From an archaeon (GTDB lineage Archaea > Nanobdellota > Nanobdellia > SCGC-AAA011-G17 > GW2011-AR17), in contig JBDRRK010000008.1 in NCBI GenBank assembly GCA_043825775.1, positions 61,978 through 125,977 of the forward strand: 64,000 nt of DNA, in the 5' to 3' direction. The notes under the pieces are model-generated. The model saw nothing but the letters and a program-made list of their open reading frames with translations, ran no database searches and was not told the DNA's origin. Positions 1-31,604 of the stretch are shown here, in pieces (the stretch's first letter is position 1; each line of letters begins with the position of its first letter). Both the position numbers and the translations under genes were made by a program.

Positions 1-330
1 GGAATACTGTTACATGTGGACCTCCAACAATTATTTTTTGATTAGGTATGTTTTCCTTTATTATAGAAATCATTTCTTTTGTTTTCATATACCAAGGCGT
101 CATTATTGTTAAACCTACAATATCTGGTTTTTGTTCCTTTAGAATTTTGATGATATCTTCATATGAGTAGTGGAAAGCAGGGACATCTATTATTGAAACT
201 TCGTGTTTATCTCTAATTGCAGCTGCTAAATAGGCTAGGCCTAATGGTTCGCATGTTGGACCCATTTTTCCTAGTGCTTTTCCATATCTGTCTGCGGCAA
301 ACAACCCTGGATTTATTAGAGTTACTTTCA
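1..330 (-). CDS. B12-binding radical SAM domain protein, N-terminal part (partial; runs off window start)
   Basis: Reverse-complement translation from ATG at 330..328 gives MKVTLINPGLFAADRYGKALGKMGPTCEPLGLAYLAAAIRDKHEVSIIDVPAFHY...IVGGPHVTVF. This is the same N-terminal cobalamin-binding Rossmann architecture as the three full B12-rSAM ORFs in this window. No stop inside the window. Confidence 0.5.
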
Positions 331-418
331 TTAGATTTTAGATTAATCACTTATTTATAAAATTTTAGTAGGTTAGACCTAAATAACCTTTTTAAATAGA
401 AAACTTTTTTTTGAATCG

Positions 419-2059
419 ATGAAAAAGGAGATAAAGGGATTGCTATTATTGTTCTTAGTAATTACTTTAGTTAAGATTATATTTAGTTATTTCACTCCTG
501 CTCCAAGTGCCTTTTCTGATAATTATATCTATATTAGAACTGCTTGGGAGTTTTTTCATAATGGTGGCCTTTTTGTGAATGGAATTTCTTCATCTCCTCC
601 CCTTTATTCAATGTTGATTAGTATTGCTTATGTGTTTGAAGATATGGAAAATGTTTTTATTGCTATGAAAGTAATAAATTCCATTGTTTCTTCATTAGTT
701 GTTTTTCCTATTTACTTTTTGGCTAGAGATTTTTTGAGTTCAAAGAAAAGTAGAATTGTTGTTGTTTTGAGTGCTTTAATTGTTCCACACTTTCTTTTTC
801 CAAACTTTATCATGGCTGAAAATTTGTTTTTTCCTTTAGTTGCTTTTGTTATTTACTTTTTGTATTTGTCATTTAAGAAACAGAATTCAATGTTCTTTGT
901 TATTTCTGGTTTATTAATTGGTTTGAGTATTTTAACAAAAGCAATTGGATATGCGTTGATTCCTGCTTGTTTCTTTATATTTTTATTTTTACGAGGAAAG
1001 TTTAAGAATGTTATTTATCATTATTTAGCATTAGGGCTTTTGTTCATTCCTTACCAATATTGGAAAGCTGTTTCTAATCCTAAAATGCCCTTGGGCTATA
1101 GCAATTCTGGAACTATTGGGAAGGTTATTGCTAACCTTACAACAAATATTGCTTCTTTTATTAATTGGAATATAAATTATATTGGGTTTATTATGTTAGC
1201 TTTAGGGGTTGTGTTTGTTATTGTATTTTTAGCATTAATATTTACAAAGAAAGAGAAAGATTTTAAGACACTGTTTAGTGTTGTTGTGGTTGTTAGTTTT
1301 TTTACTGTGTTGCTGGCTGTAAATTCTAGTGCATTTAGTGTTAATGGAGCTCCTTACATTACTTGGCATGGTTTTACTTGGTATCTTGGAAGGCCTTTAG
1401 GTCGTTACATTGCTTCTGTATTGCCTTTTATTTTTTTAGTAGGGTTTATTGGTTTTCAAAAAAGGTTGATTAGTTATAGAAAATTTAAGATCTTTGCCTT
1501 GATATCAATTATTGTTTTGGCTATATCTACTTATCTCACATTGTCTTCATTGTTTCCTGTAAATAATAGTTCTCTTACTTTATTTGGTACTTTACAGTTA
1601 GGATTGAAGTATGTTTTTGCAGATTGGAGTTATTTCTTAATTGGATTAATATTTATACTGTTACCTTTAATTGCTATTTTTATTTACAAAAAGAAAAAAA
1701 TAGTTATTGGATTAGTATTTTTTTTTCTTTTAGTTAGTTGTTTATTAGCCTATAGTATTCATTTGTATAATATGGAGAGTTATTGGGCAAATAATGATCA
1801 GGTTATATTGGGAAAATGGATTGATGATAATTTAGAAGGGATTATTGTAATTGATACAAGAGATTGTGAATGGCATTCAAAAGAAGATATGAACAATTAT
1901 TTATGTACAGGAGATGATACTAGAAGTTCTGTTGTTGGGATGTGGGTGAACAATCCTGTTATTGTAAGTGATACTCCTGATGGAGATTATTTTGTTACAA
2001 TTAGAGATATGAATATGGAATTAGTAAAAGAAGTTGGTAAGTTTAAAGTTTATTCTTGA
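419..2059 (+). CDS. GT-C-type integral membrane glycosyltransferase (GT39/ArnT/PMT-like), putative
   Basis: 546 aa with more than 10 predicted TM helices followed by a soluble C-terminal domain of ~100 aa. The architecture is typical of lipid-linked-sugar-dependent GT-C enzymes. No specific motif confirmed. Confidence 0.45.
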   Translation: MKKEIKGLLLLFLVITLVKIIFSYFTPAPSAFSDNYIYIRTAWEFFHNGGLFVNGISSSPPLYSMLISIAYVFEDMENVFIAMKVINSIVSSLVVFPIYFLARDFLSSKKSRIVVVLSALIVPHFLFPNFIMAENLFFPLVAFVIYFLYLSFKKQNSMFFVISGLLIGLSILTKAIGYALIPACFFIFLFLRGKFKNVIYHYLALGLLFIPYQYWKAVSNPKMPLGYSNSGTIGKVIANLTTNIASFINWNINYIGFIMLALGVVFVIVFLALIFTKKEKDFKTLFSVVVVVSFFTVLLAVNSSAFSVNGAPYITWHGFTWYLGRPLGRYIASVLPFIFLVGFIGFQKRLISYRKFKIFALISIIVLAISTYLTLSSLFPVNNSSLTLFGTLQLGLKYVFADWSYFLIGLIFILLPLIAIFIYKKKKIVIGLVFFFLLVSCLLAYSIHLYNMESYWANNDQVILGKWIDDNLEGIIVIDTRDCEWHSKEDMNNYLCTGDDTRSSVVGMWVNNPVIVSDTPDGDYFVTIRDMNMELVKEVGKFKVYS

Positions 2060-2781
2060 ACTTTTGGTTTTTTTAGAAGTCTATAAGACATCATAAACCA
2101 TTGTGCTATTGCAAATAATACTGTCCAAACTGTTAGAATTACTACTAACCAATACATTTTATTTATGAATGCTGCTAGAGCAATTACAGCTGTTAATTGT
2201 GGATCTGTTGGAAAGAATTGTATGAATAACTTCAAGTACCATTTTGATTTTTCATTTTCAGCCATATCATTTGCAGCAGGTAGTCTCATAAATATTTGAT
2301 ATGTTAGGCTTCCATAGAAATAAAAAGCCATTATCAGTAATCCCATGATTAAAACCAAAGAATCTGTTGTTGCATAATAAACACCCAAGATAATTCCTAA
2401 AAATACTGCTAATTTACCAAACTCATCTGCATGATGATCAAACCAGTATCCAGTCATACTTGCTGTGTTCTTTACTCTTGCTAATGATCCATCAACAAAA
2501 TCAAATATATATCTAAGAATAATTAAAATTCCTCCTGCAACTAGGAACCAGTAGGAATATTCAGGTGGGAAAAAATAAGGATATAAACCTTCGAAAAAGA
2601 AGTATCCGTTTAAAATTGATAGTAAACCTACTGCCAATGTAATCTGATTAGGAGTCAGTTTTGTGTGTTTATGAATAAACCAAACCAAAGGTATTGTAAT
2701 TCTTCTTCCTAACTGCCTAAAGATTGGACCCTTCAAGTCGGCTTCCTTCACCATAGGATGATTCTTGTCTAGTATCGGCAT
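2050..2781 (-). CDS. CDP-alcohol phosphatidyltransferase family protein
   Basis: Signature D-G-x2-A-R-x8-G-x3-D-x3-D is present as DFVDGSLARVKNTASMTGYWFDHHADE. Multi-TM protein. Confidence 0.7.
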   Translation of the reverse strand: MPILDKNHPMVKEADLKGPIFRQLGRRITIPLVWFIHKHTKLTPNQITLAVGLLSILNGYFFFEGLYPYFFPPEYSYWFLVAGGILIILRYIFDFVDGSLARVKNTASMTGYWFDHHADEFGKLAVFLGIILGVYYATTDSLVLIMGLLIMAFYFYGSLTYQIFMRLPAANDMAENEKSKWYLKLFIQFFPTDPQLTAVIALAAFINKMYWLVVILTVWTVLFAIAQWFMMSYRLLKKPKVQE

Positions 2782-3541
2782 TTATATCACTTTGAGGTTT
2801 TTCTTTAAAAAGTTTTCTAAAATAATCTAATTCCGCATGAAAATCAACTTCAATCCATTTTTCACCATCAATTTCATGTGTATGGACATCATATCCCTTT
2901 TCATGTAAATGTGTAAAGGTTTCTAACCAAAAATTATTCATGTGTTGTTGACTCCTAACTAACTCTTCAAGAATATCTTTATAGACTTTAATATGTCTTT
3001 CTCCTGAGACCTTTACTAGTCCTGGAGATTCAGCATGTATTTCTGGATGTTCTATTTCTTTACTTACTCTTGAAGCTGTATTCCTTTCTGTTAGAGTCAC
3101 TTTCATATCAGAGGCTTGGTATTTTGCTAAATCTTTTTTTCTTATTGATAAGATTATTCCTTCACTTGAGTTTTGTACGAAATCTCTGAAAACTTCTGGT
3201 TCAAAAACATTATCCCCATTTGTTATCATAAAATCTCCAGTCATTTCTGGTTTTGCAAACCAAAGAGACACTAAATTGTTGGAAGTAGCATAAAAAGGAT
3301 TGTATATTGTTTTAATTTTTAATCCATTTTTTTCATAAGAAGATATTTTTGCTTCAATTTGATGAGCTAGATAACCTACAACTAAAACAACTTCATCTAT
3401 AACTCCTGATTTTTGTATACTATCTAATTGTCTTTCAAGAAGAGTCATACCTTCACCAAAGTCCACTAATGGTTTTGGAGTATTTCTTGTCAAAGGCATT
3501 AATCTTGTGCCTATTCCTGCTGCTAGAATTATTAGTTTCAT
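2717..3541 (-). CDS. Sugar/alcohol-phosphate nucleotidyltransferase (cytidylyltransferase-like)
   Basis: N-terminus MKLIILAAGIGTRLMPLTRNTPKPLV is the canonical G-x-G-T-R-L nucleotidyltransferase motif. Its 3' end overlaps the downstream CDP-alcohol phosphatidyltransferase by 65 nt. Confidence 0.65.
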   Translation of the reverse strand: MKLIILAAGIGTRLMPLTRNTPKPLVDFGEGMTLLERQLDSIQKSGVIDEVVLVVGYLAHQIEAKISSYEKNGLKIKTIYNPFYATSNNLVSLWFAKPEMTGDFMITNGDNVFEPEVFRDFVQNSSEGIILSIRKKDLAKYQASDMKVTLTERNTASRVSKEIEHPEIHAESPGLVKVSGERHIKVYKDILEELVRSQQHMNNFWLETFTHLHEKGYDVHTHEIDGEKWIEVDFHAELDYFRKLFKEKPQSDINADTRQESSYGEGSRLEGSNL

Positions 3542-3623
3542 TTCCCTCTTTAAAGGTTAGTAAAAAATTTATTTATAAGTTTTTCTCATCTATAATCTTG
3601 TTATTAAAGAAAAAGTAAAAAAA

Positions 3624-4547
3624 TTAAAGAGATTGGAGGTAGAGTTCTAATGCTCCTATCCCTATTGGTGCATGTGCTCCAGGCTGTGAATCAATAAATG
3701 ACCTTATTGATCTAGGATTGTCTCTCACAGGGATTAAAGGAAAGTGTTCCCATGCATCATGGGGTAGACCTCTTTCTTGCATGATTTCCCTTTTAGCTTT
3801 TGTATCATAGCCTTGTCCAGTCAATATTTGATAAGTTGCATTAGCATTTTCATTAAGTTGAATTAATTGTTCTGCTGTTGCTTTTGCTTCTACTAAACCA
3901 ACAAATTTTATTCCGGTTGGTCCAAGTAATGGCTGTGTTGCTTCAAAAACTCCAATCAACCCTTTGTATTCACAATCAATTTTATCTCCACCAAGCTCTC
4001 CTTTAAATTCATCTATTGCTGTAACTTCTAAAGGGTCTGCTTCAAGATTAGAAGGGAATGATACGGAACCACCAGGTGGAAGCCCATATAAACCACAAGC
4101 AAATCTTCTAATTCTTAATTCATTAACTTCTCCACCTCTAATTCCAACTAAAATCTTATTATCTCTTGTTCTTGTTACTCCAATCATTGCTAATTGGTAG
4201 AAAGGATTTTTTCCAAAAGCTCCGCCTCTTGCAGCTTGTATTTCATAAGATGGGATTCTCATTCCTTCTAAAGCTAAATGATTTCCAGGTTGTGTTAATG
4301 CTTCTGGATTTGTAAGTGTTAATACTTCTTCTTTCCAAGCAAGATCTTTTTCTGCTGTTATTCCTCTTAATTCTGCTAATGCTTCCCAATTAGTAGGATC
4401 ATATAAAGAAGAGTCTGCTTTTCCTTCAAAATCTACAGTTCTATCTTCTACTTCAAAAGAAGTGGTTGTGTCTTTTAATGATCTAATAATCCTAAATGAG
4501 TTGTCTTGTATAATTTTTAAGACTTGTTCTTGTGTTGCCTGTGCCAT
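3624..4547 (-). CDS. Hypothetical protein (compositionally GC-richer than its neighbours)
   Basis: 307-aa ORF, Gly/Pro-rich. No motif I can name from sequence. Confidence 0.4.
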   Translation of the reverse strand: MAQATQEQVLKIIQDNSFRIIRSLKDTTTSFEVEDRTVDFEGKADSSLYDPTNWEALAELRGITAEKDLAWKEEVLTLTNPEALTQPGNHLALEGMRIPSYEIQAARGGAFGKNPFYQLAMIGVTRTRDNKILVGIRGGEVNELRIRRFACGLYGLPPGGSVSFPSNLEADPLEVTAIDEFKGELGGDKIDCEYKGLIGVFEATQPLLGPTGIKFVGLVEAKATAEQLIQLNENANATYQILTGQGYDTKAKREIMQERGLPHDAWEHFPLIPVRDNPRSIRSFIDSQPGAHAPIGIGALELYLQSL

Positions 4548-4645: not shown

Positions 4646-5032
4646 ATGGAAGATGGAATAGATCCCAAATCAACAATGAGCGAAGAAGAAAGAATAGCTG
4701 CTATAGCCACTTTGCAAGAATATGTAAGTAAAAAAGTAGAAGTTTTATATTATTATAGGGAGAGTGTTTACTCAGGTAATTTTCCAATAGTAGAATTAAA
4801 ACCTGAAGGGATTGTATTTCAGTATAGCTCTATTGATGACTATATGGATACTCCTCCTAATGAAGAAATTCCAACACATGAAGGATTATGGAAATTTGTT
4901 GGTGAAAAAAGATTTGAAATAATAATAATGAAAATAAAGGAGTTTGAAACAGGAAAACTTCTCTATGAGAATAGAGAGGTTGGTCCAAATCAGGATGAGG
5001 ATCTTGAAGATAGAACTTTGAGTTCTAGTTAG
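4646..5032 (+). CDS. Hypothetical acidic protein
   Basis: 128-aa ORF in an intergenic slot. No recognisable motif. Confidence 0.3.
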   Translation: MEDGIDPKSTMSEEERIAAIATLQEYVSKKVEVLYYYRESVYSGNFPIVELKPEGIVFQYSSIDDYMDTPPNEEIPTHEGLWKFVGEKRFEIIIMKIKEFETGKLLYENREVGPNQDEDLEDRTLSSS

Positions 5033-5045
5033 TTCTAAAATAATT

Positions 5046-6857
5046 TTAATTTATATTATAATTCTCTTTTATATAAGACAACCAAATTTCCAGACTGTAA
5101 ATCATCCATAATCTTTGACCAAACATAGGGTCTTCCTTGTTCTGTTCTATCCAGCTGTTTAAATTATCAAGATTAAAGTATTTAGAAACACAATTGTTTG
5201 GATTTAGAATAACTATTTTCATCTTTTTAATAAAGTCCTCTCCAAACCATTTATTCAAAGGTAAAGGAAAGCCTTGTTTTTTTCTGTTAATTATTTCTTC
5301 AGGAATGTAGGTTTGTGCTATTCTCTTTAACATGAACTTAGGGATGTCATGATTTTCAGAAATTTCATTAAAAATTAAATTTAAAGATTCTTTTATTGAT
5401 TCTTTATTTTTGAATCTATTTTTGTGTTCAAATGGTAAGGAATAGACTTGTTGTACAAAATTATGATCCAAAAAAGGAACTCTTGCTTCTACTGCATTAG
5501 CCATACTAGATACATCACTTCTTAATAATAATCCAGGTAAGTGGACTTTTAAAAATAAGTAAGATATTTTATTGTAGTAATCCCTTGGACACTTTTCAAG
5601 ATAATATGAAAAAGTTTCTTTGAACTCTTTATAATATTCTGGTTTTAGTATTTGTTTTAAGTTATCGTCTTTAAAATATCCATAATTGTTCATAAAAAAA
5701 TCTAAAAAATTTGAATCATCATTGTGCTCTTTCATATAATCAAATGGAGACCTAAATATTCTTCCGTATCCAGCAAATATTTCATCTGCTCCTTCTCCAG
5801 CCAAAACTACTGTTGCTGTTTTTTTAATCTGTCTGAATAATAAGAATAAAGCAACTTCATTTGGAACTCCAATTGGTTCATCTTTGTATTTTAAGTATTC
5901 GTGCATACTTGAAAGATAATCTTCATTTTTTATTTCCAGTTCATTATGTAGTGTTTCATATTGATCTGCTACTTTCTTTGCAAATGGAGTTTCATCATAA
6001 CCTTCTTCTGAGAATTTTACAGTATAGGTGTTTATTTTCTTATTACTCTGTTTAGCCATTATTGCTGAGAGTAAACTTGAATCTAATCCACCAGATAATA
6101 TTGAACCGACCTCAACATCTGCAAGCATTCTGTATTCAGTGCTTTTAATTAACCCTTTTTCTATTTCATTTATCTGTGAATTAAAGGAAAGTAATGTTTC
6201 TTTATGGTGTACATCCCAATATTGATTTATTTCTAAAGAATTATTTGTTAAATCGTAAGTTAAAGAATATCCAGGTTTTAGTTTTTTTATTCCTGTAAAG
6301 AATGTATCTTCTTCTAAGACATACCTATATCTTAAGAATGAAGATATTGCCGATGGATTTATTCGAGTTGGTAGTTTGTGGGTTAATATGGCTTTTATTT
6401 CTGAAGAAAAGATAAATTTTTCTCCTTGTTTTTGATAGTAAAAAGGTTTTATCCCTAATCTGTCTCTTGAACAGAATAAAATATTTTTATTTTTATCATA
6501 AATACAAAAAGCCCACATACCATTGAAATGTTGTACACAATCTTGTCCAAATTTCTCGTACATGGCCAGGATTACTTCTGTGTCTGTGTTTGATTTGAAA
6601 TTGTAATCTTGGCAGTATTTTTCTTTTAATTCTTTAAAATTGTAAATCTCTCCATTAAAAACAATGTAAAAATTGTTGTTAAACATTGGCTGATTACCTT
6701 TTTCTGATAAGTCTATAATAGATAATCTTGTATGACCTAAAGAGAGATTTTCAAATATCATAGAATCGTTAAAATCAGGACCCCTATGAAGAATCTTTTG
6801 ATTCATAGAATTGATTAATTCTTTATCAGACCAGTTAAAACCATTAATCCCACACAT
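5046..6857 (-). CDS. asnB: Asparagine synthetase (glutamine-hydrolysing), AsnB family
   Basis: N-terminal MCGI (class II glutamine amidotransferase nucleophile Cys2). PP-loop SGGLDSS is present. 603 aa. Confidence 0.85.
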   Translation of the reverse strand: MCGINGFNWSDKELINSMNQKILHRGPDFNDSMIFENLSLGHTRLSIIDLSEKGNQPMFNNNFYIVFNGEIYNFKELKEKYCQDYNFKSNTDTEVILAMYEKFGQDCVQHFNGMWAFCIYDKNKNILFCSRDRLGIKPFYYQKQGEKFIFSSEIKAILTHKLPTRINPSAISSFLRYRYVLEEDTFFTGIKKLKPGYSLTYDLTNNSLEINQYWDVHHKETLLSFNSQINEIEKGLIKSTEYRMLADVEVGSILSGGLDSSLLSAIMAKQSNKKINTYTVKFSEEGYDETPFAKKVADQYETLHNELEIKNEDYLSSMHEYLKYKDEPIGVPNEVALFLLFRQIKKTATVVLAGEGADEIFAGYGRIFRSPFDYMKEHNDDSNFLDFFMNNYGYFKDDNLKQILKPEYYKEFKETFSYYLEKCPRDYYNKISYLFLKVHLPGLLLRSDVSSMANAVEARVPFLDHNFVQQVYSLPFEHKNRFKNKESIKESLNLIFNEISENHDIPKFMLKRIAQTYIPEEIINRKKQGFPLPLNKWFGEDFIKKMKIVILNPNNCVSKYFNLDNLNSWIEQNKEDPMFGQRLWMIYSLEIWLSYIKENYNIN

Positions 6858-8552: not shown

Positions 8553-9404
8553 ATGAGAATAGGTAAAATGAAACCCAAAACTAATGTTTTTGTTGTATTC
8601 TGGTTGATTGGAATGATTAGTAGCCTTTTGGTTTTATTATATGTCAATAAGATTGTAGGTATAATTGGTTTGGTTTTCTTCAATATCCTCATTTTGTATG
8701 TTTTGTATAAGTATAGCTTTTTAATTGTTATTCATTCACATAAATATGGCTTGTTGAATAAAAAATTCTTTGAATCAAAATCAAAAGGATACATGAACGA
8801 GGATAATAGATGGAAAATTGCAAGAAAGACTATTATTGAGTTAGTAAATCCAAAAAAAGGTGAAAAAATCTTAGATATTGCTTGTGGTTATGGTTTTTCT
8901 TCAATAGAATGTGCTGTTAAGGGTGCTGATGTTACTTCTTTAGATATTTCAAAAACTGCTTTGGAGTGGACAAAGAGAATTGGCAAGAAAAAAGGAGTTA
9001 ATTTGAAAATAATTGAATCAGATGCTGTAAGCTTGAAAGGAGTTGAAGAAAAAAATTTTGATAAAGCTATCTATGCTAATATTACTGAACATCTGCTTAA
9101 TGAAGATACACTTAAATCATTTAAAAATTGTAATAAAATTTTAAAAGATAAAGGATATGTTTTTATCTACTGCCCAAATGGAAATCATTATTCTGAATAT
9201 ATTAGGTTAAAACCTATAGAAGGACATATTGGTTTAAAGAGTATGGAAGAATTAGTTGATTTATTAGAAAAAGCTGATTTTGATATTGTAAAAAAATATT
9301 ATAAACCTGGAGCTGTACCTATACTAAAGGAATTAGACATTTTATTTCAAGATTATATTCCAATCTTTAGAAAAAGATTGTGTATTGTTGCAAGGAAAAG
9401 ATGA
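8553..9404 (+). CDS. Class I SAM-dependent methyltransferase with N-terminal TM segment
   Basis: Motif I ILDIACGYGFSS is present. Hydrophobic N-terminus. Confidence 0.6.
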   Translation: MRIGKMKPKTNVFVVFWLIGMISSLLVLLYVNKIVGIIGLVFFNILILYVLYKYSFLIVIHSHKYGLLNKKFFESKSKGYMNEDNRWKIARKTIIELVNPKKGEKILDIACGYGFSSIECAVKGADVTSLDISKTALEWTKRIGKKKGVNLKIIESDAVSLKGVEEKNFDKAIYANITEHLLNEDTLKSFKNCNKILKDKGYVFIYCPNGNHYSEYIRLKPIEGHIGLKSMEELVDLLEKADFDIVKKYYKPGAVPILKELDILFQDYIPIFRKRLCIVARKR

Positions 9405-10330
9405 AAATTAAAAAAATTATATGGCCAGTAATCTCTATTATAATAATACTCGCTTTTGGGTATATTATCTATCAAAATTTTGCAGAGTTTAGTAAAATTT
9501 TAGACTATCCTTGGATTATTTTAATATTGGTCTTACTTAGTTCTATAGGTTTTTTTTTTAATGGTATGAAAATAAAATTTCTTGTAAAAAATTTTGGTGT
9601 TGATCTTGGAGTTATGGAATCTTATTGGCTTTCTGTTGTTACTTCTCTTGGAAATTATCTTACTCCATTTAGAGGAGGGGCGGCCTTAAGAGCATATTAC
9701 TTGAAAAAAAAATATCAATTTAGTTATATTGATTTTTTTGTTACTATGGCTGGAACTTATGTTATTATCCTGTTTGTAACTGCAATTTTAGGTCTGATTT
9801 GTCTTTTAGTGATGTATTTATTAAATATACCAACACCAAAAGAATTTATTATTTTATTTTTAGGAATTTTAGTTTTAACCATTTTAGTATTATTTGTAAA
9901 AATACCTCATAAAATAAACTCATCTAATTTTATTCTTCGTAAAATAAGCAAAGTTATCAAAGGTTGGAATCTAATTAAAAAAGATAAAAAATTAATATTA
10001 AAAGTAGGTTTAATGGATACTTTTTGTTATGTTATAGTTATATTAAAAGTATATATTTTGTTTGAAGTTTTAGATCAAGGAATCAGTTTTATTTCTAGTA
10101 CCTTATTAGGATTAATCCATGGTATTTCTACACTTATCACTATTACTCCTGCTGCTTTAGGGATTAGAGAAGTGGCTATTGCATATTCTGCTGAGCTACT
10201 TGGAATTGGTTTAAATGTTGGAGCTGTTGTTTCTATTATTGACAGAGTTATTTTAATCCTTACTTTGTTATTATTAGGTTTGATTTTTGGTAAGAAGTAT
10301 GTTGTTAAAAAGAATAGTGTAGTTCCATAA
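9380..10330 (+). CDS. Flippase-like multi-TM membrane protein (UPF0104 / lysyl-PG synthase TM-domain family)
   Basis: 316 aa with 8 or more TM helices. The AALGIREVA-type segment is typical of this family. Confidence 0.45.
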   Translation: MYCCKEKMKIKKIIWPVISIIIILAFGYIIYQNFAEFSKILDYPWIILILVLLSSIGFFFNGMKIKFLVKNFGVDLGVMESYWLSVVTSLGNYLTPFRGGAALRAYYLKKKYQFSYIDFFVTMAGTYVIILFVTAILGLICLLVMYLLNIPTPKEFIILFLGILVLTILVLFVKIPHKINSSNFILRKISKVIKGWNLIKKDKKLILKVGLMDTFCYVIVILKVYILFEVLDQGISFISSTLLGLIHGISTLITITPAALGIREVAIAYSAELLGIGLNVGAVVSIIDRVILILTLLLLGLIFGKKYVVKKNSVVP

Positions 10331-22852: not shown

Positions 22853-24076
22853 CTAAGAAGTATCTTTTAATATCAATCCTGCTACCTCTCTGCCAGAAAG
22901 AAGAGCTGTATTCATATTTCTTATTTTTGGGTAGGTTACTGCAATCCCTGAAAAATAAATATTATTTACCTGTTTTGGAGGCATATTTCTATGAAAATCC
23001 TTATCATAAATAGGACTTGCATACTTTTCCCTAAAAACTTTTGTCCATTTTATTTCAACGGGGAATTGTTCTGTTACCATATTCATGTATTCTTTGACAA
23101 TCTGTTCATCTGTTAGTTCTAGATCTTCCTCAGATCCTCCATATCTTAAAGCCCAAGTCACTTTGGTGTCATAACCATCATAGAGATAAGAATGTTGCAT
23201 TAGCATATGTACTCTTTTATTCAAAATATTTATCCAATAATGATCTGATAATAATTTTTCAGTTCCGAAAACTACAGATACACAAGGGCAGTACTTTATT
23301 TTTGATATTTTACTTACTATTTCTTCATCAAGATTTTTTTGTCTTTTCAAGAATGAAGGAAGAGGTATTGTTATTACTATTTTATCAAATTTTTCTCCAT
23401 CAATTGTTGTATTCTTACAGTCTATCTCTTGGATTGTTGCATTTTTTATTATTTTAACATTATTTTTCAGTAAAGTTTCTTCAAATGCATCAATAATTGC
23501 ATCAAGACCTTCAGTAGGATATCCAAAGTTGCCTGTTGCTTCTTTTGCAGTTAATCTGTTTGCAAACTGTTTTGCTGATATTTGTGATAATGGTATGTTA
23601 AACTTATTTCTTGCATACAAAGGAGTAAATAACTTCTCAGTTACTTCTTTTCCAGCTACTTGATTCAACCATTCTTCTGCGTTTTGGTCTTCTGGAATGT
23701 TATCAGGATTCAATAATGTGTATACATAAGATCCAAACATTCCATATCTCATCCTTCCATACAGAGTTAAGTAACTGAAATTCATTAGAGCAAGGGGGTT
23801 TGTAAAATTGTATATCTTTTCATTAACTAAAATTCCCATCTTAATCTTCTTCCATGTTAAATTTAAACCATATTTTTGCATATATTCTTTAGTTGTGTTA
23901 TCATGAGCAAATACATGATGATAGTGCATTGGAATTTTCTTTCCTTTATATTCAAAAGAAGAAGCCAAACCACCAAGATAAGAATTTTTTTCAAAAAGAG
24001 TTATTTCATGATTATTTGAAAGTATTTCTGCTGCAGATAATCCTGTCAATCCCCCACCTATAATAGCTATTTTCAT
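22853..24076 (-). CDS. FAD/NAD(P)-binding oxidoreductase (amine-oxidase / UDP-galactopyranose mutase-like)
   Basis: MKIAIIGGGLTGLSAAEIL dinucleotide-binding motif. 407 aa. Confidence 0.55.
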   Translation of the reverse strand: MKIAIIGGGLTGLSAAEILSNNHEITLFEKNSYLGGLASSFEYKGKKIPMHYHHVFAHDNTTKEYMQKYGLNLTWKKIKMGILVNEKIYNFTNPLALMNFSYLTLYGRMRYGMFGSYVYTLLNPDNIPEDQNAEEWLNQVAGKEVTEKLFTPLYARNKFNIPLSQISAKQFANRLTAKEATGNFGYPTEGLDAIIDAFEETLLKNNVKIIKNATIQEIDCKNTTIDGEKFDKIVITIPLPSFLKRQKNLDEEIVSKISKIKYCPCVSVVFGTEKLLSDHYWINILNKRVHMLMQHSYLYDGYDTKVTWALRYGGSEEDLELTDEQIVKEYMNMVTEQFPVEIKWTKVFREKYASPIYDKDFHRNMPPKQVNNIYFSGIAVTYPKIRNMNTALLSGREVAGLILKDTS

Positions 24077-25519: not shown

Positions 25520-27043
25520 ATGAAAAATAAGTATATCTACATTTTTTTGATTGTATTAATTTTATTTGGATGTTTTTTGAGATTTTACCATTTAGATCAA
25601 GAAACTTTATGGAATGATGAGCCTTATTATATGATTAGTGCTTTAAAATTTCATCATGAAAGTTATGAGGCTGGAAGTTTTTATGTTATGGAACATCCTC
25701 CATTGGCAAGGTGGATTTTAGGAATTCCAACAAAATGGATTGATTTAGATTATAGTGGTTTAAAAAATCTTGGAGCAAATATGTATGCTTCTGGTTTTTA
25801 TGTTAGTGACCTTTTGAAAGAAACTTATGTTCCTATTCGTTTTATGAATGCAATTATTGGAACTTTGGGAGTTTTGTTTATTATTTTAATTACTAGAAAA
25901 ATATTTGGTTTGTATGCTGGATTGTGGGCTGGTGCTTTGGCTGCTCTTTCATTTGATTTGATATCATATAGTAGACATACACTTACTGATGGTTGTGCTT
26001 TTACTTTTGCCCTAGGGACATTATTATTTTTTATATATTATTTGTATAACAAAACTGATAGAAGATATTGGTATCTTGTTTTATCTTTGTTATTTTTAAT
26101 TTTGGCTTTAGATAGCAGGAATTTTCATCCTTTGTTTTTAATTCCTATCTTGATAATTAGTCTATTTGTTATTAAAAGAAATAAAGAAGAAAGAGCAGAA
26201 AATATATTTGTTTCTGGATTAATCTTTGCTGCAACTTATGTTGCTTTGAAAGTAATATATCTTCCAGAAGCATTTAAGGCTGGACAAGAATTGTATGATG
26301 TTACAATTTTTAGTATATTGCAGTTTAATCTTCATAATATCTTCATTACTTTGTTCTTTAGAAATTCATACTTATTTATCCTTGTTTTATTGTTATTGTT
26401 GTTTGAGCTTTATTTGATTTATACTAATAATAAAGATAATTTGAAAGGTTTATTTTTGAGTAAAAAACCGGAAATGGTCGTGTTCATATTTTTTGTTATT
26501 TATTTCTTTGGTTTAGGGATTACAGAGTTTAGTTTGCAAGCAAGGCACTTACTTGTTGTATTTATTCCCTTGTTTATCTTTGGAGGATATATTTTAAAAA
26601 AATATTCTACTAAAAAGTTTTTTCTTGCTGTTATAGTTGGTTTATTGATATTGAATGTTTATTTGTTAATTTCTTATTTTCCTCATGAGACAAGTAATTA
26701 CATTAATTTTGGGGTGGATAAATATATTTCAGAAGGTTCTGATGATCCTGAGTATCTAGATGCTATTGCATTTTTGGAGAACGATGGAAATCCTAAGATA
26801 ATAACCAGCTTACCTAATATGTTAATATTCTATGAAAATGTAGATCCACTTGTCATGGCTTCTGATTCTAGATGTACTGAGGCTTTTTTTGAACAAATGA
26901 AAGAAGATGGCACATATATGATTGTTACTCATGGTTTTATTGAAAGATGTATTGAATTACAGATAGTTTGTCCAGGTGTTGATTTATATGAAAGAGAAAT
27001 TGTTTATACGACACAAAATTTAGAAGTTTCTCATTTCAAATAA
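25520..27043 (+). CDS. GT-C-type integral membrane glycosyltransferase (GT39/ArnT-like), putative
   Basis: 507 aa. Multi-TM N-terminal region plus soluble C-terminal domain. Architecture is similar to the 419..2059 ORF. Confidence 0.45.
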   Translation: MKNKYIYIFLIVLILFGCFLRFYHLDQETLWNDEPYYMISALKFHHESYEAGSFYVMEHPPLARWILGIPTKWIDLDYSGLKNLGANMYASGFYVSDLLKETYVPIRFMNAIIGTLGVLFIILITRKIFGLYAGLWAGALAALSFDLISYSRHTLTDGCAFTFALGTLLFFIYYLYNKTDRRYWYLVLSLLFLILALDSRNFHPLFLIPILIISLFVIKRNKEERAENIFVSGLIFAATYVALKVIYLPEAFKAGQELYDVTIFSILQFNLHNIFITLFFRNSYLFILVLLLLLFELYLIYTNNKDNLKGLFLSKKPEMVVFIFFVIYFFGLGITEFSLQARHLLVVFIPLFIFGGYILKKYSTKKFFLAVIVGLLILNVYLLISYFPHETSNYINFGVDKYISEGSDDPEYLDAIAFLENDGNPKIITSLPNMLIFYENVDPLVMASDSRCTEAFFEQMKEDGTYMIVTHGFIERCIELQIVCPGVDLYEREIVYTTQNLEVSHFK

Positions 27044-28194
27044 AGTTTTTCGAAATCTTTTACTACATTAGAAACTAAGTATTGTTTTGCTTTTTCTTTG
27101 TTATGTTCTTTTATTTGTTCTCTTAATTCTGTATTTTTTATCAATTTAGTTAGTGCCTGTTTTAATTGTTCTAAGTTTTTGTAATCATAAAGAAAACCTT
27201 CCTTTTCTGAGATTAAAAAAGATCCACCCTCTGTTTTTGTTGAAACTAAAGCACAAGATCTAGCCATTGCTTCTATTAGAACAATTCCGAATGCTTCCCA
27301 TTCACTAGGCAAGATAAATATTTCAGTTAAATCTAAATATTGTAATCTTTCTGTTTCTCCTACTCTTCCTGTAAATTTTATATGGTTTTCAACTCCTAGT
27401 TCTTTTGCTATATTTGTTAATCTGTTTATTTCATTATCAACTTCATTACCCATAATTAAGAATTGGATGTTTGGTTGAATTTTGATTAAATCTGGAAGAA
27501 CCCTTATTACTTGATCCATTCCTTTATATTTTTGAACTCTTCCTAAATAGGAAATTATAAATTTGTTTGTTATTTGGGGTTTAACTCTCTTGAAAATTGA
27601 TTCTGGTATTGAGTTTGGAATGAACTTTATATTTTTTAATCCAAATTTATTCATCCATTGGTATTGAGTTGGGTTTACTTGCACTGACTTGTGGTAGAGA
27701 AGGTTTATTGGATATTCTAATGTTCTGTAAATATCTCTTAATACTTTTTGCCACCAAGGATATGTATCCAAGGCCATGAAAGGTCCATGAGGGGTGTTGA
27801 TTAGTTTTGTTTTTGTAAATATTCTTCTTAATAGAACTGCTAAATCTTGGAATGGAAATCCAATGCTTTGTACATGTAAGACATCTAAATTATATTTCAA
27901 ATGTTTAAATGATAATCCTGGATTAAATTTTAAGTAGTATTTATATTTGAAGAACAGTCTGCTTCTGTGAAAGTATATTCCATCAATTGTTTCCTCTTTT
28001 TTAAAAATATTATTTTCTTTTCTGTCTGAAGTGAATATATGTATTTCATGTCCTCTTTTCTTTAGTTCTTTTGCTATGTTAAATGTTAATTCTTCCATCC
28101 CTCCTGTTGCAGGGTAGAAATAATTGGCCATGAATCCTATTTTCATAATGAAGAATTTTGGTTTTTTATTTATAAAGTTTAAGTAGAACTGCAC
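27031..28194 (-). CDS. Glycosyltransferase family 4
   Basis: EAFGIVLIEAMARSCALVSTKTEGG donor-binding motif is present. Confidence 0.7.
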   Translation of the reverse strand: MQFYLNFINKKPKFFIMKIGFMANYFYPATGGMEELTFNIAKELKKRGHEIHIFTSDRKENNIFKKEETIDGIYFHRSRLFFKYKYYLKFNPGLSFKHLKYNLDVLHVQSIGFPFQDLAVLLRRIFTKTKLINTPHGPFMALDTYPWWQKVLRDIYRTLEYPINLLYHKSVQVNPTQYQWMNKFGLKNIKFIPNSIPESIFKRVKPQITNKFIISYLGRVQKYKGMDQVIRVLPDLIKIQPNIQFLIMGNEVDNEINRLTNIAKELGVENHIKFTGRVGETERLQYLDLTEIFILPSEWEAFGIVLIEAMARSCALVSTKTEGGSFLISEKEGFLYDYKNLEQLKQALTKLIKNTELREQIKEHNKEKAKQYLVSNVVKDFEKLYLK

Positions 28195-28228
28195 AATCTT
28201 TATAAATTAAATTTCTAAAAATTACTCT

Positions 28229-29368
28229 ATGAGGATTGCAATTGTTAGTATGTTCTATAAACCTACTATTGGAGGCGTAGAGAAAGTAATTGAGGTTTTA
28301 GCAAAAAATTATATTTCTAAAGGACACAGTGTTGATGTTTATTGTTGTGATTGTGATAAAAATAAGAGAATTAAAAAGAAGTTTGAAATTATTGAAGGAG
28401 TTAGGGTTTATAGATCAAGGTACTGGTTAAGGTTATCATTTAATACACATATTTTTCCAGGAGTTATATGGGATTTAATGACAAAGAAATATGATGTTAT
28501 TCATTCCCATGTTGGTGCACATGATTATGTTCTTTTCGCTGGATTGGCATCAAAGTTAAAAGGGGTTCCACATGTTCATACTACTCACTGTCCTTGGACT
28601 GATAAGTTTAGACCTTTAGCTGTTCGTATTCCTCTCTTCTTTACTGATAATTTTTTTAATTATATTTCTTTTAATTTGTGTGATAAGATTATTGCAATTA
28701 CACCTTGGGAAGTTCCTATTTTGAAGAAATGGGTTAAGGAAGATAAAATACAAGTGTTGCATAATGGTATGGATGGAAGATTGTTCAAGAAAGTTGATGG
28801 AAGTTCTTTTAGGAAGAAAGTTATGAAAGATCCCAATAATAAGTTAGTTTTGTTTTTTGGTCGTTTACATCCAACAAAAGCCCCTGATAATTTTGCTAAG
28901 GTTGCAAGAATGATTTGTAATGAAAGAAATGATATTGAGTTTGCCATAATTGGTCCTGATGAAGGTGAAATGGAAAAAGTAAAAAAAATAGTTAATAATC
29001 ATGATAGGATACATGTTACAGGACCTTGGCCTTATGAGGAAATTGAATATATGTATCAAGGTTCTGATCTTTATGTTTTAAGCTCTTATAGAGAGGGTTT
29101 GCCTTTAACATTGTTTGAGGCTATGGCCTCTGGGTTACCAGTAGTTGCAACTCCTGTTAATGGTGTTCCTTATGAAATGAAGGAGGGAGTTAATGGTTAT
29201 TTGGTAGAGTATGGAGATTTAGAAGCTATGAAAGAAAAGATATTGAAGATATTAGGTGATGAGAAATTAGCAAAGAAGTTTTCAGAGAATAATATTGAAA
29301 AAGTTAGAGGATATACTTGGGATAATATTGCTGCTGCAACTTTGAAAATTTATCAGGAGGAAATATGA
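28229..29368 (+). CDS. Glycosyltransferase family 4
   Basis: REGLPLTLFEAMASGLPVVATPVNG motif is present. Confidence 0.75.
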   Translation: MRIAIVSMFYKPTIGGVEKVIEVLAKNYISKGHSVDVYCCDCDKNKRIKKKFEIIEGVRVYRSRYWLRLSFNTHIFPGVIWDLMTKKYDVIHSHVGAHDYVLFAGLASKLKGVPHVHTTHCPWTDKFRPLAVRIPLFFTDNFFNYISFNLCDKIIAITPWEVPILKKWVKEDKIQVLHNGMDGRLFKKVDGSSFRKKVMKDPNNKLVLFFGRLHPTKAPDNFAKVARMICNERNDIEFAIIGPDEGEMEKVKKIVNNHDRIHVTGPWPYEEIEYMYQGSDLYVLSSYREGLPLTLFEAMASGLPVVATPVNGVPYEMKEGVNGYLVEYGDLEAMKEKILKILGDEKLAKKFSENNIEKVRGYTWDNIAAATLKIYQEEI

Positions 29369-30738
29369 AAGTTTTGTTAGTCTATCCAAACATTGTAGAA
29401 TCTCCTAAAGATATCTCTATTGGTTTAGGCATATTGTCATCGTTGTTGAAGAAGAATAATCATGAGGTTGATTTAATTGATTGTACATTTGGAATCGATG
29501 ATGAGGAAATTGAAGATAAGGTTAAAGAGTTTAATCCTGATTTGGTTGGAGTTAGTGCAGCTACTAATGATTTTAATAATGCCATTAGAATTTGTAAATT
29601 AATTAAGAAGGTTAAAGATGTGAAAATAGTTTGTGGAGGTTATCATGCAACTGTTGCTCCGGAAGATATTTTTATGTATGACTGTTTTGATGTTGTTGCT
29701 ATTGGTGAAGCTGAGCGTTCTTTTTTGGAGTTGGTTGAGAATTTAGATAAAACTAATATTAAAAATATGTGGTTTAGGAATGATGGTGAAGTGATAAAAA
29801 ATGATGTGGGTGATTTGTTACAAGATTTAGATTCATTGCCTTTTCCAGATAGAGAACTGTTTGATTATCAAAAATATATTAATTCTAACAGAGGTTTGGC
29901 TACTTTTATGTCTAGTAAAGGTTGTCCATTCTTGTGTACTTATTGCATAAATAAAGTTTTAATTGGTAAGTATAAAGGCAAGGGAAAGTTTTTGAGGTTT
30001 AGAAGTGTTGACAATGTTTTAAAGGAGATTAAGGAAGTTGTTTCAGAATATAAAGTTAAAGAGATTGAATTTTATGATGATACTTTTACATTGGATAAAG
30101 AAAGGTTGAAAGATTTTTGTAAGAGATATAAGGAAGAGGTTGGTTTGCCTTTTTACATTAATGCTAGAGTTAATGCTGTTACTAAGGAAGATTTTGAACA
30201 TTTAAAAGATGCTGGTTGTGTTAGAGTTTCTATTGGTATTGAGGCTGGTGATGATTATATTAGAAATAAAGTATTGAAAAGAAACCAGAAAGAAGAAGAT
30301 ATAATTAATACATTTAAATGGGCTAAAGAGGTTAGTTTGAAGACATATTCTTTTAATATGATTGGTATTCCTTTTGAGGATATGGCTAGTATAAAGAAAA
30401 CAATTGCATTAAATAAAAAAATAAAACCTGATTATGTAGGTGTTTCAATATTTAATGCGTTTAAAGGAACTGAATTGTATGATCTTTGTTTGAAAAATGG
30501 TTGGTTAGCACAGGGTTATTCAAAATCTTATTTTCAGTCTACAAATGTAAAACATCCTAATTTTACATTGAAGAGGTTGAAGAAGATTAGAGATAGGTTT
30601 GGTTTTGAGGTGTATAAAGATTCAGACAAGAAAAGAGCTTATATTGATTTAATTGATAAGAAGATGACTAGAGTTCCAATGTATACTAAATTAAGAAGTG
30701 TTTTGATTGAAAAGGGAGTTAAGAAATGGGTGGAATAA
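29365..30738 (+). CDS. Cobalamin (B12)-binding radical SAM protein
   Basis: N-terminal B12-binding domain (MKVLLVYPN…GGYHAT). CPFLCTYCIN motif is present. Confidence 0.8.
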   Translation: MKVLLVYPNIVESPKDISIGLGILSSLLKKNNHEVDLIDCTFGIDDEEIEDKVKEFNPDLVGVSAATNDFNNAIRICKLIKKVKDVKIVCGGYHATVAPEDIFMYDCFDVVAIGEAERSFLELVENLDKTNIKNMWFRNDGEVIKNDVGDLLQDLDSLPFPDRELFDYQKYINSNRGLATFMSSKGCPFLCTYCINKVLIGKYKGKGKFLRFRSVDNVLKEIKEVVSEYKVKEIEFYDDTFTLDKERLKDFCKRYKEEVGLPFYINARVNAVTKEDFEHLKDAGCVRVSIGIEAGDDYIRNKVLKRNQKEEDIINTFKWAKEVSLKTYSFNMIGIPFEDMASIKKTIALNKKIKPDYVGVSIFNAFKGTELYDLCLKNGWLAQGYSKSYFQSTNVKHPNFTLKRLKKIRDRFGFEVYKDSDKKRAYIDLIDKKMTRVPMYTKLRSVLIEKGVKKWVE

Positions 30739-31604
30739 TAAGTGTTATAATTACTGCATATAAAGAAGAGAAAACTGTTGGAAAGGCAATTGAACAGTTT
30801 TTGAAACAAGATGTTCATGAAGTTATTGTTGCTTGTCCTGATGAAGGAACTAGAGAGGTTGTTGAGAGTTTTACTGATGAAAGAGTTAAATGGGTAAAAG
30901 ATCCAGGTAAAGGAAAGCCGATTGCGTTGAATATTTGTTTTTCAATTGCAGGAGGAGATTATTTGATATTGAGTGATGGTGATGTTTATGTTTCTGATAA
31001 TGCTGTTCAAGAGCTAATGAAAGAATTAGAGAAGGGTTATGGTGCTGTTACTGGAAGGCCTGTTTCTTTAAATTCAAGAGCTTCAATGATGGGATATTTT
31101 TCTCATTTACTGACTGATGTTGGTGCTCATGATACTAGAATGAAATATGTTAAGGATAAGAAGTTTATTGATGTCTCTGGATATTTGTATGGGATGAAGA
31201 AAGTTATTAAAGAAATTCCAGAAGATGCTCTTTCTGATGATGCTGTTATTTCACAGATGATTTCTATGAAAGGATATAGAATAGGTTATGCTCCTGAAGC
31301 TAAAGTGTTTATTAAATATCCTTCCAACTTTAAGGATTGGGTTATTCAGAAGAAAAGGAGTGCTGGGGGTTATAATCAATTGAAAGAATATTTTCCTGGG
31401 AATGAGAGAATGAGATCATTTTCTAAAGAGATTAAAGAGGGTTGGTACAAACCTTTTACTTATCCAAGGAGTGTTAAAGAGGTTGTTTGGACTGGATGGT
31501 TGTATGTTTGTAGATTGTATTTGTGGTTTAAGATTTACAAGGATATTGATGTTGGAAAGCAGGAATTTAGCAAAGTATGGGTTAGAGTGGATAGTACAAA
31601 GTAG
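30726..31604 (+). CDS. Glycosyltransferase family 2
   Basis: ISVIITAYKEEKTV N-terminus and SDGD (DxD) motif are present. Confidence 0.7.
   Translation: MGGIISVIITAYKEEKTVGKAIEQFLKQDVHEVIVACPDEGTREVVESFTDERVKWVKDPGKGKPIALNICFSIAGGDYLILSDGDVYVSDNAVQELMKELEKGYGAVTGRPVSLNSRASMMGYFSHLLTDVGAHDTRMKYVKDKKFIDVSGYLYGMKKVIKEIPEDALSDDAVISQMISMKGYRIGYAPEAKVFIKYPSNFKDWVIQKKRSAGGYNQLKEYFPGNERMRSFSKEIKEGWYKPFTYPRSVKEVVWTGWLYVCRLYLWFKIYKDIDVGKQEFSKVWVRVDSTK

Follow-up and report, generated by a model that had tools for sequence, protein, structure and literature searches.

Why would an archaeal gene cluster for building a surface glycan carry a whole series of radical S-adenosylmethionine (SAM) enzymes, and what could these enzymes act on? 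The question is raised by a 64,000-nucleotide stretch of an archaeal contig (GenBank JBDRRK010000008.1, positions 61,978 to 125,977; hereafter the window), in which an initial annotation had outlined a surface-glycan island of about 31 kb, unusually rich in radical SAM enzymes that depend on cobalamin (B12). We conclude, with a probability of roughly 0.75, that window positions 1–31604 are part of a lipid-carrier surface-glycan island of at least 41 kb whose radical SAM enzymes tailor its sugars. The right edge had been placed correctly, as the threonyl-tRNA synthetase gene begins at 31642, but the left edge of the window is not the end of the island. On the source contig (locus L085, in which window position 1 corresponds to position 9583), the island continues for at least another 9.6 kb, and the window holds its right-hand three quarters. 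Our reading ended 9.6 kb upstream of the window, so the island size and gene counts are lower bounds. The island encodes at least nine radical SAM enzymes, at least six of the type with a B12-binding domain (B12-type) and at least three of the SPASM type. In public metagenome-assembled genomes, these proteins are listed only as "radical SAM protein".

The genes surrounding the radical SAM enzymes identify the island, by homology, as a lipid-carrier-based glycan assembly system. The window part encodes four GT4 and two GT2 glycosyltransferases, a Wzx flippase, an LPG_synthase_TM protein, and two GT-C glycosyltransferases of the PMT_2 type. The upstream 9.6 kb adds a second Wzx-like flippase, an 11-transmembrane (TM) protein, a methyltransferase, a third SPASM radical SAM protein, two further B12-type proteins (492 aa and at least 483 aa), and a GT2 that has TM segments at its C-terminus and is similar to AglJ/dolichyl-phosphate hexose transferases (149 bits over the full length, against a cut-off of 325). 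All of the other components listed in the initial annotation were recovered in our searches (GT2, GT4, and GT-C transferases, Wzx, RmlC/RmlD, a short-chain dehydrogenase/reductase (SDR), AsnB, two methyltransferases, and two flavin adenine dinucleotide (FAD) enzymes); missing from that list were a nucleotidyltransferase/CDP-alcohol phosphotransferase pair, the LPG_synthase_TM protein, and a 9-TM protein. Open reading frame (ORF) listing and Pfam scans showed that genes are closely packed in the window part, where no intergenic gap exceeds 135 bp. The radical SAM genes are interleaved with the transferase genes, and start and stop codons often overlap.

Four B12-type proteins (B12_0 to B12_3) are encoded in the window, as the initial annotation had estimated with "at least four", a number that undercounts the at least six in the island. 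In the three complete window proteins (B12_1, B12_2, and B12_3), the B12-binding domain PF02310 scored 47–80.5 bits against a gathering score of 32.1, and the Radical_SAM domain PF04055 scored 73–94 bits, also above its gathering score. The truncated gene at the window start likewise has a B12-binding domain and is completed on the source contig to a full radical SAM protein. The B12-binding assignment therefore passed the hidden Markov model check. The CxxxCxxC motifs of the three complete proteins read CPHNCTYC (B12_1), CPYQCTYC, and CPFLCTYC, the upstream paralogues also carry the motif, and a GGx[H/Q] motif is present in the Rossmann domain of B12_1, B12_2, and B12_3. The predicted architecture of all six proteins is clearly the class B, class I layout, in which an N-terminal Rossmann B12-binding domain is followed by the radical SAM core. 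Judged by their pairwise identities of only 24–36%, the six genes are old paralogues rather than recent duplicates, and for the same reason each probably performs a different step.

The clustering of B12-type genes is far beyond chance: all six lie within about 41 kb, the remaining 32 kb of the window has none, and only 13,533 of 1.84 billion library representatives match one of these proteins at E ≤ 1e-10. The description "unusually rich" is thus apt with respect to chance, but less so with respect to relatives. Among 59 related loci in genomes, each 12 kb or longer, at least two B12-type radical SAM ORFs were found in 27, at least three in 16, and at least four in 10. The families are also large. 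B12_1 has 1,834 representatives at E ≤ 1e-30. B12_2 has more than 5,000 detectable homologs, with about 60% identity in DPANN archaea and about 50% in Schekmanbacteria, Omnitrophota, Aminicenantes, Parcubacteria, and Desulfobacteraceae. B12_3 has many orthologs at 70–76% identity in metagenomes, and its named homologs (59–66%) are from DPANN archaea.

The two additional radical SAM enzymes of the initial annotation, SPASM_1 and SPASM_2, both have Radical_SAM and SPASM domains in Pfam. SPASM_1 carries a CNGKCIIC motif and had no solved relative in the PDB search. SPASM_2 matches BtrN (PDB 4m7t) at E 1.5e-35 with 33% identity over 232 aligned residues; its residues 27–265 align to 20–258 of the 270-aa BtrN chain, and all seven cysteines (those of the radical SAM cluster and the four of the auxiliary cluster) are aligned. 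Given the same length and the retained cysteines, SPASM_2 is best described as a full-length BtrN homolog. BtrN is a radical SAM dehydrogenase that oxidizes a cyclitol hydroxyl group in butirosin biosynthesis. In contrast to BtrN, SPASM_2 has no aminoglycoside pathway or partner aminotransferase around it, and its neighbors are a methyltransferase and a DAO-family flavoenzyme; neither an aminotransferase nor a DOI (2-deoxy-scyllo-inosose) synthase, as expected for a 2-deoxystreptamine context, was found in the window part of the island or the upstream 9.6 kb.

The genomic surroundings of relatives connect these enzymes to glycosyltransferases. We surveyed with Pfam the 127 neighboring ORFs in 12 loci that contain a radical SAM protein at least 40% identical to B12_2. 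The survey found 24 GT2 ORFs, 12 further radical SAM ORFs (seven with a B12 domain), about 10 class I methyltransferases, seven PMT_2, five GT4, five SDR epimerase/dehydratase, and five Amino_oxidase ORFs. No lipid-synthesis family was among the 25 commonest Pfam families of this census, and prenyltransferase, GGR, Tes, and other lipid genes were absent from the archaeal and bacterial neighborhoods of the B12-type relatives. Glycosyltransferase-rich loci with two to five B12-type radical SAM genes were found repeatedly (L002, L004, L086, L087, and L088). A Schekmanbacteria locus has three B12-type genes, two GT4, PMT_2, a B12_2–flavoenzyme pair, a SPASM radical SAM gene, and Wzx; L086 has five B12-type genes with a flavoenzyme, GT2, GT4, and PMT genes; and the bacterial L087 has two with GT2, SDR, WecG, and a PIG-L deacetylase. 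Relatives of B12_1 lie between GT4 and GT2 genes in L089 and in a row of five B12-type genes beside Wzx, GT2, PMT_2, and GT4 in L088. Relatives of the three complete B12-type proteins thus reside in glycosyltransferase-rich loci of DPANN archaea and anaerobic bacteria and not in lipid-synthesis loci, and the synteny comparison upholds the glycan assignment of the initial annotation. Separately, four loci from Bathyarchaeota and unclassified bacteria (L025, L050, L055, and L056) contain four to seven B12-type paralogues within 11–21 kb and few or no BLAST-detectable glycosyltransferases; these arrays may serve a pathway other than that of the glycan islands.

Two arrangements within the island are conserved as cassettes. 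One pairs B12_2 with AmOx, a flavoenzyme with an amine-oxidase/phytoene-desaturase fold. AmOx directly adjoins the B12_2 ortholog in L002, L005, L006, and L015 and is two genes away in L007, while AmOx-like genes are close to other B12 paralogues in L033, L079, and L086. In a manual comparison of the match lists, 13 of the 30 top B12_2 homologs were on a contig of the same size as that of a top AmOx homolog. The association is kept in archaea and bacteria, and the archaeal loci add an adjacent polytopic membrane protein; in L005, a 29%-identical relative of the 9-TM protein of the island adjoins the pair. AmOx passes the NCBIfam model NF005560 (267 bits, cut-off 252), a family named only "hypothetical protein". 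The second cassette is the GT4–B12_3–GT2 operon at the right end of the island. Orthologs of its GT2 (51–52% identity) come after a GT4 gene in L008 and L015, and the complete order recurs in a related, DPANN-type metagenomic locus (JGI 3300072015) whose radical SAM protein, P0147, is 68% identical to B12_3. PMT_2 and LPG_synthase_TM genes come next in that locus, and an oligosaccharyltransferase STT3/AglB lies within 5 kb. An IS605 OrfB/TnpB (Cas12f-like) gene is situated at 10859–12115 of the same locus, between PMT_2 and LPG_synthase_TM and next to AglB.

We propose the following scheme for the island. The cytoplasmic GT4 and GT2 transferases and the AglJ-like dolichyl-phosphate hexose synthase would build lipid-linked sugars from precursors supplied by RmlC/RmlD, the SDR, the nucleotidyltransferase, and AsnB. 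The two Wzx-type flippases and the LPG_synthase_TM-type flippase-like protein would move them across the membrane, and the two PMT_2-type GT-C transferases would act outside it; two further polytopic membrane proteins are candidate members of the GT-C class. The radical SAM enzymes probably perform radical chemistry on the sugar units, which may be nucleotide-linked or, more likely, polyprenyl-phosphate-linked. Three observations point to lipid-linked substrates: the radical SAM genes adjoin the AglJ-like GT2 and GT-C genes; HpnJ provides a precedent, as its own substrate is a lipid-linked glucosamine, on which it works subsequent to a GT2 (PMC13459092); and one B12_2 homolog is fused to a PAP2 domain. 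This homolog, the bacterial P0111 (L003 8001–10139), is 47% identical to B12_2 and has an N-terminal PAP2 lipid-phosphatase domain, which hints that the B12_2 family acts on lipid-phosphate-linked substrates. In L003, a UbiE-type methyltransferase gene comes after it. Candidate reactions are the conversion of a secondary alcohol into a ketone (by the BtrN-like enzyme), C-methylation, deoxygenation/dehydration as in AprD4, and ring contraction to a carbocycle as proposed for HpnJ and Cds. AmOx could oxidize or isomerize the same intermediate as the radical SAM enzymes.

Several observations weigh against this scheme. None of the island radical SAM proteins reached an NCBIfam curated cut-off, and their subfamilies are without a characterized enzyme; the domain assignments of the initial annotation hold, but the family scores allow no functional name. 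HpnJ (TIGR03471) scores highest for B12_0 (252 bits), B12_2 (176), and B12_3 (162), near full length, and the six proteins score 106.7–252.5 bits against its cut-off of 577.6. The AprD4 family (NF033070) gives 38–101 bits (cut-off 500), and the methylase models MgmA and HpnR give 44–132 (cut-off 360) and 29–140 (cut-off 650), respectively. BchE, ApyD, the ladderane-lipid protein, MgmA, PhpK, BzaD, and others are among the lower-scoring families, and all B12-type proteins are far below the cut-offs of the KedN5, PhpK, tryptophan 2-C-methyltransferase, and C-methyltransferase models for peptides made on the ribosome and modified after translation (RiPPs). Structure does not separate the candidates either. 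The best PDB sequence matches of B12_2 and B12_3 are AprD4 (E ~1e-22, radical SAM core only) and MgmA/QCMT (PDB 9ccb; PMC12931638, PMC11796369), and over the N-terminal part the matches are the cobalamin domains of TokK, TsrM, OxsB, MgmA, and 4q37. The solved relatives include the sugar enzyme AprD4 alongside true B12 enzymes (MgmA, TokK, TsrM, OxsB, and CysS). In a Foldseek search of the PDB with the AlphaFold (AF2) model of B12_2 (mean confidence score, pLDDT, 87), MgmA (E 2.0e-22) and AprD4 (E 2.2e-22; TM-score 0.74–0.76) were tied, each match spanning the full length. The former is a B12-dependent C-methylase, and the latter is a sugar 1,2-diol dehydratase that binds no cobalamin (PMC12931638). 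According to the same 2026 review, structural features cannot separate methylases from HpnJ, BchE, and the ladderane enzyme, and the largest B12-type cluster has no characterized member (PMC12931638). The AmOx model (pLDDT 94) has neighbors at TM-scores of 0.76–0.81 that include a sugar enzyme (UDP-galactopyranose mutase) and an isoprenoid enzyme (phytoene desaturase) as well as protoporphyrinogen oxidase and amine oxidases, and the PAP2-fused homolog resides in a locus with few glycan genes. Finally, neither AglB/STT3 nor an initiating phosphoglycosyltransferase was matched among the ORFs of at least 100 aa in positions 1–34000, among the genes listed for the 9.6 kb upstream, or among selected larger ORFs of the 34–64-kb part, so the acceptor may be a protein, a lipid, or a polymer. 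Cobalamin use and C-methylation by the B12-type proteins are therefore plausible, and the glycan island is supported, while the GenK/Fom3-type C-methylation proposed in the initial annotation is supported by none of the curated methylase models.

With regard to chemistry, two explanations are about equally likely. The B12-type proteins may be methylcobalamin-dependent C-methyltransferases of the GenK/Fom3/TokK type that make multiply C-methylated sugars, a sub-case of sugar tailoring that we consider a real possibility, although at less than even odds. They share with the class I enzymes of this type (MgmA/QCMT, TokK, GenK, and Fom3) the N-terminal Rossmann cobalamin domain and the radical SAM TIM barrel, but at about 20% identity, and the substrates are presumably glycan intermediates here and antibiotics or proteins there. 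The PF02310 scores above the gathering threshold, the conserved GGxH motif, the alignment of the N-terminal domains with cobalamin binders (TokK, OxsB, TsrM, and MgmA), and the place of MgmA as the top Foldseek match of the B12_2 model agree with methylation, and C-methyltransferases are the largest group characterized among B12-dependent radical SAM enzymes (PMC12931638). The window also encodes a class II adenosylcobalamin-dependent ribonucleotide reductase, NrdJ, with an ATP-cone (57828–59900, + strand; TIGR02504 688 bits, cut-off 400), which shows that B12 is used by the organism; among the window ORFs scanned, none was seen to be a gene for making or importing corrins. However, every curated methylase model is missed by far, three of the six proteins score highest with the non-methylase HpnJ, AprD4 ties with MgmA, and ordinary SAM methyltransferases already number two in the window and three with the upstream part. 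Some or all of the proteins may instead be cobalamin-free or non-methylating and catalyze 1,2-diol dehydration or hexose-to-cyclitol ring contraction, which is likewise a tentative proposal. In the PDB, B12_2 and B12_3 are matched best in sequence by AprD4 (apramycin; PDB 6fd2), a B12-free sugar enzyme with the same two-domain layout, which is also the structural co-best for the B12_2 model. Its sequence alignment, however, covers the radical SAM core only, the N-terminal domains have true cobalamin binders as their matches, and the pathway of AprD4 makes a secondary metabolite and not a surface glycan. HpnJ, the best NCBIfam match of three proteins, is also a radical SAM protein with a B12-binding domain; in the HpnI–HpnK–HpnJ module of the hopanoid side chain, it follows the GT2 HpnI as the proposed ring-contraction enzyme on lipid-linked glucosamine (PMC13459092). 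The island radical SAM genes similarly flank the AglJ-like dolichyl-phosphate hexose synthase and GT2 genes, and the bacterial locus L087 pairs two such enzymes with a GT2 and a PIG-L-type deacetylase. Against this, the scores with the HpnJ and AprD4 families fall far short of the cut-offs (162–252 bits for the three best HpnJ matches), the host is archaeal with six paralogues instead of one, neither hpn genes nor a squalene-hopene cyclase gene was found in the window or upstream 9.6 kb, and the HpnJ reaction is itself deduced from a knockout (PMC13459092).

Two further explanations would take the enzymes away from sugars. Modification of membrane lipids or the isoprenoid carrier in the manner of Grs, Gmm, Cgm, or Ted, for example, the remodeling of host-derived lipids, is improbable in our view. 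Archaeal lipid tailoring does depend on B12-type radical SAM enzymes, and hydroxyarchaeol is made by a phytoene-desaturase-family protein (bioRxiv 10.1101/2025.10.20.683597); AmOx has a phytoene desaturase/HpnE fold, and a CDP-alcohol phosphotransferase in the island and the PAP2-fused homolog could be accommodated as well. In the archaeal and bacterial neighborhoods, however, glycosyltransferases, flippases, and sugar-nucleotide enzymes predominate and lipid genes are absent, families about 50% identical occur in bacteria without isoprenoid membrane lipids, no B12-type protein matches the Tes model (NF045702), and the ladderane-lipid model is missed by far. With the Tes model, a SPASM protein from the upstream part reaches 34 bits (cut-off 450). 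The GrsA/B-type alternative raised in the initial annotation thus finds no support in the gene context, and a role on the isoprenoid carrier is unlikely, though kept open by the phytoene-desaturase-fold partner and the PAP2 fusion. Even less probable is a RiPP cluster in part of the island, in which B12-type and SPASM enzymes would mature a peptide and the AsnB homolog would be a lasso-type cyclase. ApyD, a RiPP radical SAM enzyme, is the best match of one upstream paralogue and ranks within the top three for each of the four remaining complete B12_2-like paralogues, a SPASM domain is a typical feature of peptide maturases, and AsnB scores 224 bits with the lasso cyclase model; but the cut-off of that model is 525, while AsnB passes the asparagine synthase model (470 bits, cut-off 267), the short intergenic gaps leave no space for a precursor gene, neither a peptidase nor an ABC exporter is present in the island, SPASM_2 is a homolog of BtrN and not of a peptide maturase, and the association with glycosyltransferases is kept in different phyla. 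The AsnB scores, the missing room for a precursor gene, and this conserved association led us to reject the RiPP reading.

Glycan islands are well known, as is radical SAM tailoring of sugars in aminoglycoside pathways (GenK, BtrN, and AprD4) and in hopanoid and calditol head groups, and the island demonstrates no new mechanism. What is new is a surface-glycan island with a tailoring layer dominated by radical SAM enzymes of uncharacterized families. Archaeal agl clusters and bacterial Wzx-dependent or ArnC/ArnT-type loci share with it the GT2/GT4 transferases, AglJ-like synthase, Wzx, GT-C, and Rml genes, but our literature searches found no agl or O-antigen cluster described with radical SAM tailoring enzymes, compared with at least nine here, and no description of glycan clusters rich in B12-type radical SAM genes in archaea, DPANN, or polysaccharide loci. 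Grs, Gmm, Cgm, and Ted are likewise archaeal radical SAM enzymes with B12 domains; Cds, the calditol synthase, is an archaeal radical SAM enzyme without a B12 domain that is proposed to contract lipid-linked glucose to a cyclitol (PMC13459092). These enzymes, unlike those of the island, are not described in glycosyltransferase clusters and are set apart by context and description. Glycan loci with multiple radical SAM genes recur, undescribed, in DPANN archaea and many anaerobic bacteria. A more far-reaching and rather doubtful idea is that radical tailoring of lipid-linked sugars forms a widespread, unrecognized layer of glycan biosynthesis in these organisms. Cassettes such as a dolichyl-phosphate hexose synthase with flanking radical SAM enzymes, the B12_2–flavoenzyme pair, and the GT4–B12_3–GT2 operon would then convert polyprenyl-phosphate hexoses to C-alkylated, deoxygenated, or carbocyclic (cyclitol-like) units, and GT-C enzymes would place the modified units on the cell surface.

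Table 1 Genes of the glycan-assembly island in the window, with the evidence for each assignment (scores in bits).
Feature	Position	Strand	Evidence
B12_0, N-terminal 110 aa (B12-binding domain)	2..331	-	PF02310 67
B12_0, full gene, remainder left of window	L085 8498-9913		471 aa; Radical_SAM domain
GT-C glycosyltransferase (PMT_2/ArnT-like)	419..2059	+	PF13231 43; ~13 TM (hydropathy)
CDP-alcohol phosphotransferase, membrane protein	2050..2781	-	PF01066
Sugar/alcohol-phosphate nucleotidylyltransferase	2717..3541	-	PF00483; GlmU, AglF, IPCT/DIPPS all below cut-offs
Soluble 307-aa protein, no assigned family	3624..4547	-	
Acidic 128-aa protein, no assigned family	4646..5032	+	
AsnB-type glutamine-dependent amidotransferase	5046..6857	-	TIGR01536 470.6 (cut-off 267); Asn_synthase, GATase_7
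B12_1, B12-binding/radical SAM, 518 aa	6949..8505	+	PF02310 53.7; PF04055 73.3
Class I SAM methyltransferase	8553..9404	+	Methyltransf_25/11; N-terminal hydrophobic anchor, residues 9-61
Flippase-like LPG_synthase_TM membrane protein	9380..10330	+	PF03706 89.5; TIGR00374 67 (cut-off 43)
GT4 glycosyltransferase	10348..11424	+	PF00534
RmlD-type dTDP-4-dehydrorhamnose reductase	11421..12281	+	PF04321 268
RmlC-type 3,5-epimerase	12260..12904	-	PF00908 132
SDR sugar epimerase/dehydratase	13039..14103	+	PF01370 120; GalE, RmlB families below cut-offs
SPASM_1, radical SAM/SPASM	14128..15078	+	PF04055, PF13186
DAO-family FAD oxidoreductase	15050..16183	-	PF01266 175
SPASM_2, BtrN-like radical SAM dehydrogenase (SPASM/twitch)	16180..16992	-	BtrN 4m7t homology
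Class I SAM methyltransferase	17016..17651	-	PF08241
Wzx-type flippase	17727..19226	+	PF01943 102; ~14 TM
GT4 glycosyltransferase	19259..20473	+	PF00534 107
GT2 glycosyltransferase	20453..21412	-	PF00535 86.5
9-TM membrane protein	21409..22812	-	Weak DUF2142 match below cut-off; hydropathy
AmOx, amine-oxidase/phytoene-desaturase-fold flavoenzyme	22853..24076	-	PF01593; 4-nt overlap with B12_2 end
B12_2, B12-binding/radical SAM, 449 aa	24073..25422	-	PF02310 47; PF04055 94
GT-C glycosyltransferase (PMT/PMT_2)	25520..27043	+	PF13231, PF02366; nine TM
GT4 glycosyltransferase	27031..28194	-	PF00534 121.5
GT4 glycosyltransferase, first gene of GT4-B12_3-GT2 operon	28229..29368	+	PF00534 131
B12_3, B12-binding/radical SAM, 457 aa	29365..30738	+	PF02310 80.5; PF04055 90.5
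GT2 glycosyltransferase, GT21-like matches, last gene of the island	30726..31604	+	PF00535, PF13506

Several genes in Table 1 deserve comment. The CDP-alcohol phosphotransferase has weak matches to archaetidylinositol-phosphate synthase (46.7 bits, cut-off 180) and AF2299. Its ORF and that of the nucleotidyltransferase overlap by at most 65 nt (2717–2781) in different frames, and their order is that of the fused IPCT/DIPPS enzymes of Thermococcales; judging from this arrangement, the pair may be a split version of the bifunctional design. The 307-aa protein was without match in Pfam, NCBIfam, and PDB searches, and the 128-aa protein in Pfam and NCBIfam searches. The DAO-family enzyme scores 226 bits with the L-2-hydroxyglutarate oxidase model (cut-off 299), and the 9-TM protein is possibly a GT-C or polymerase-like enzyme, as judged by its hydropathy profile.

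The host is an archaeon, as indicated by genes for a proteasome alpha subunit, ATP-dependent DNA ligase, TrmB, and deoxyhypusine synthase elsewhere in the window. The nearest named homologs of B12_2, B12_3, and AmOx are from Nanoarchaeia, Woesearchaeota, Pacearchaeota, and Aenigmatarchaeota, in agreement with the suggested DPANN-type archaeon, and a DPANN lineage is the most likely fit. Identical copies of the proteins occur in an NCBI metagenome-assembled genome and in a Logan assembly. The GC content of the island (26–32%) differs little from that of the remaining window (28–33%). We considered a recent horizontal transfer of the island, of which its composition gives no sign.

To the right of the island, the window also contains a 1,931-aa ORF (49037–54832, + strand) with Laminin_G_3 (Laminin_G) and Big_7 (Ig-like) domains and a hydrophobic C-terminal region. 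It probably encodes a giant surface protein, and one may speculate that this protein is a target of the glycan island. A further radical SAM gene outside the island (47723–48760, - strand) encodes a MiaB/RimO-like methylthiotransferase (UPF0004 and Radical_SAM) with a presumed housekeeping role in modifying tRNA or protein. A TP_methylase at 35121–35852 is a candidate diphthine synthase. The 417-aa RVT_1 reverse transcriptase gene (35929–37182, - strand) is overlapped at its 5' end by an Rfam RT-16 motif (RF03019, 73 bits, gathering score 50; 37153–37303, - strand), a reverse transcriptase-associated structured RNA found here in a DPANN-type archaeon. A clear homolog of the bacterial prolipoprotein diacylglyceryl transferase Lgt (60442–61203, + strand; PF01790 E 3e-64) is also present in this archaeal genome.

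The presence of several large B12-type radical SAM families inside glycan-assembly operons gives these enzymes a testable substrate class, namely nucleotide- or polyprenyl-phosphate-linked sugars. If the genome is as small as is usual for DPANN, then devoting 41 kb or more, and no fewer than nine iron-sulfur enzymes, to the surface coat, which is the interface of a DPANN cell with its host, would be a heavy investment, and six of the enzymes may need cobalamin scavenged by the cell. Should the products be new, C-alkylated or carbocyclic sugars would be a new glycan chemistry and possible biomarkers. If radical tailoring of lipid-linked sugars is indeed a widespread layer, the glycan made by the island would rank among the most heavily radical-modified ones known, and the island would provide a function for part of the largest unexplored group of B12-type radical SAM enzymes.

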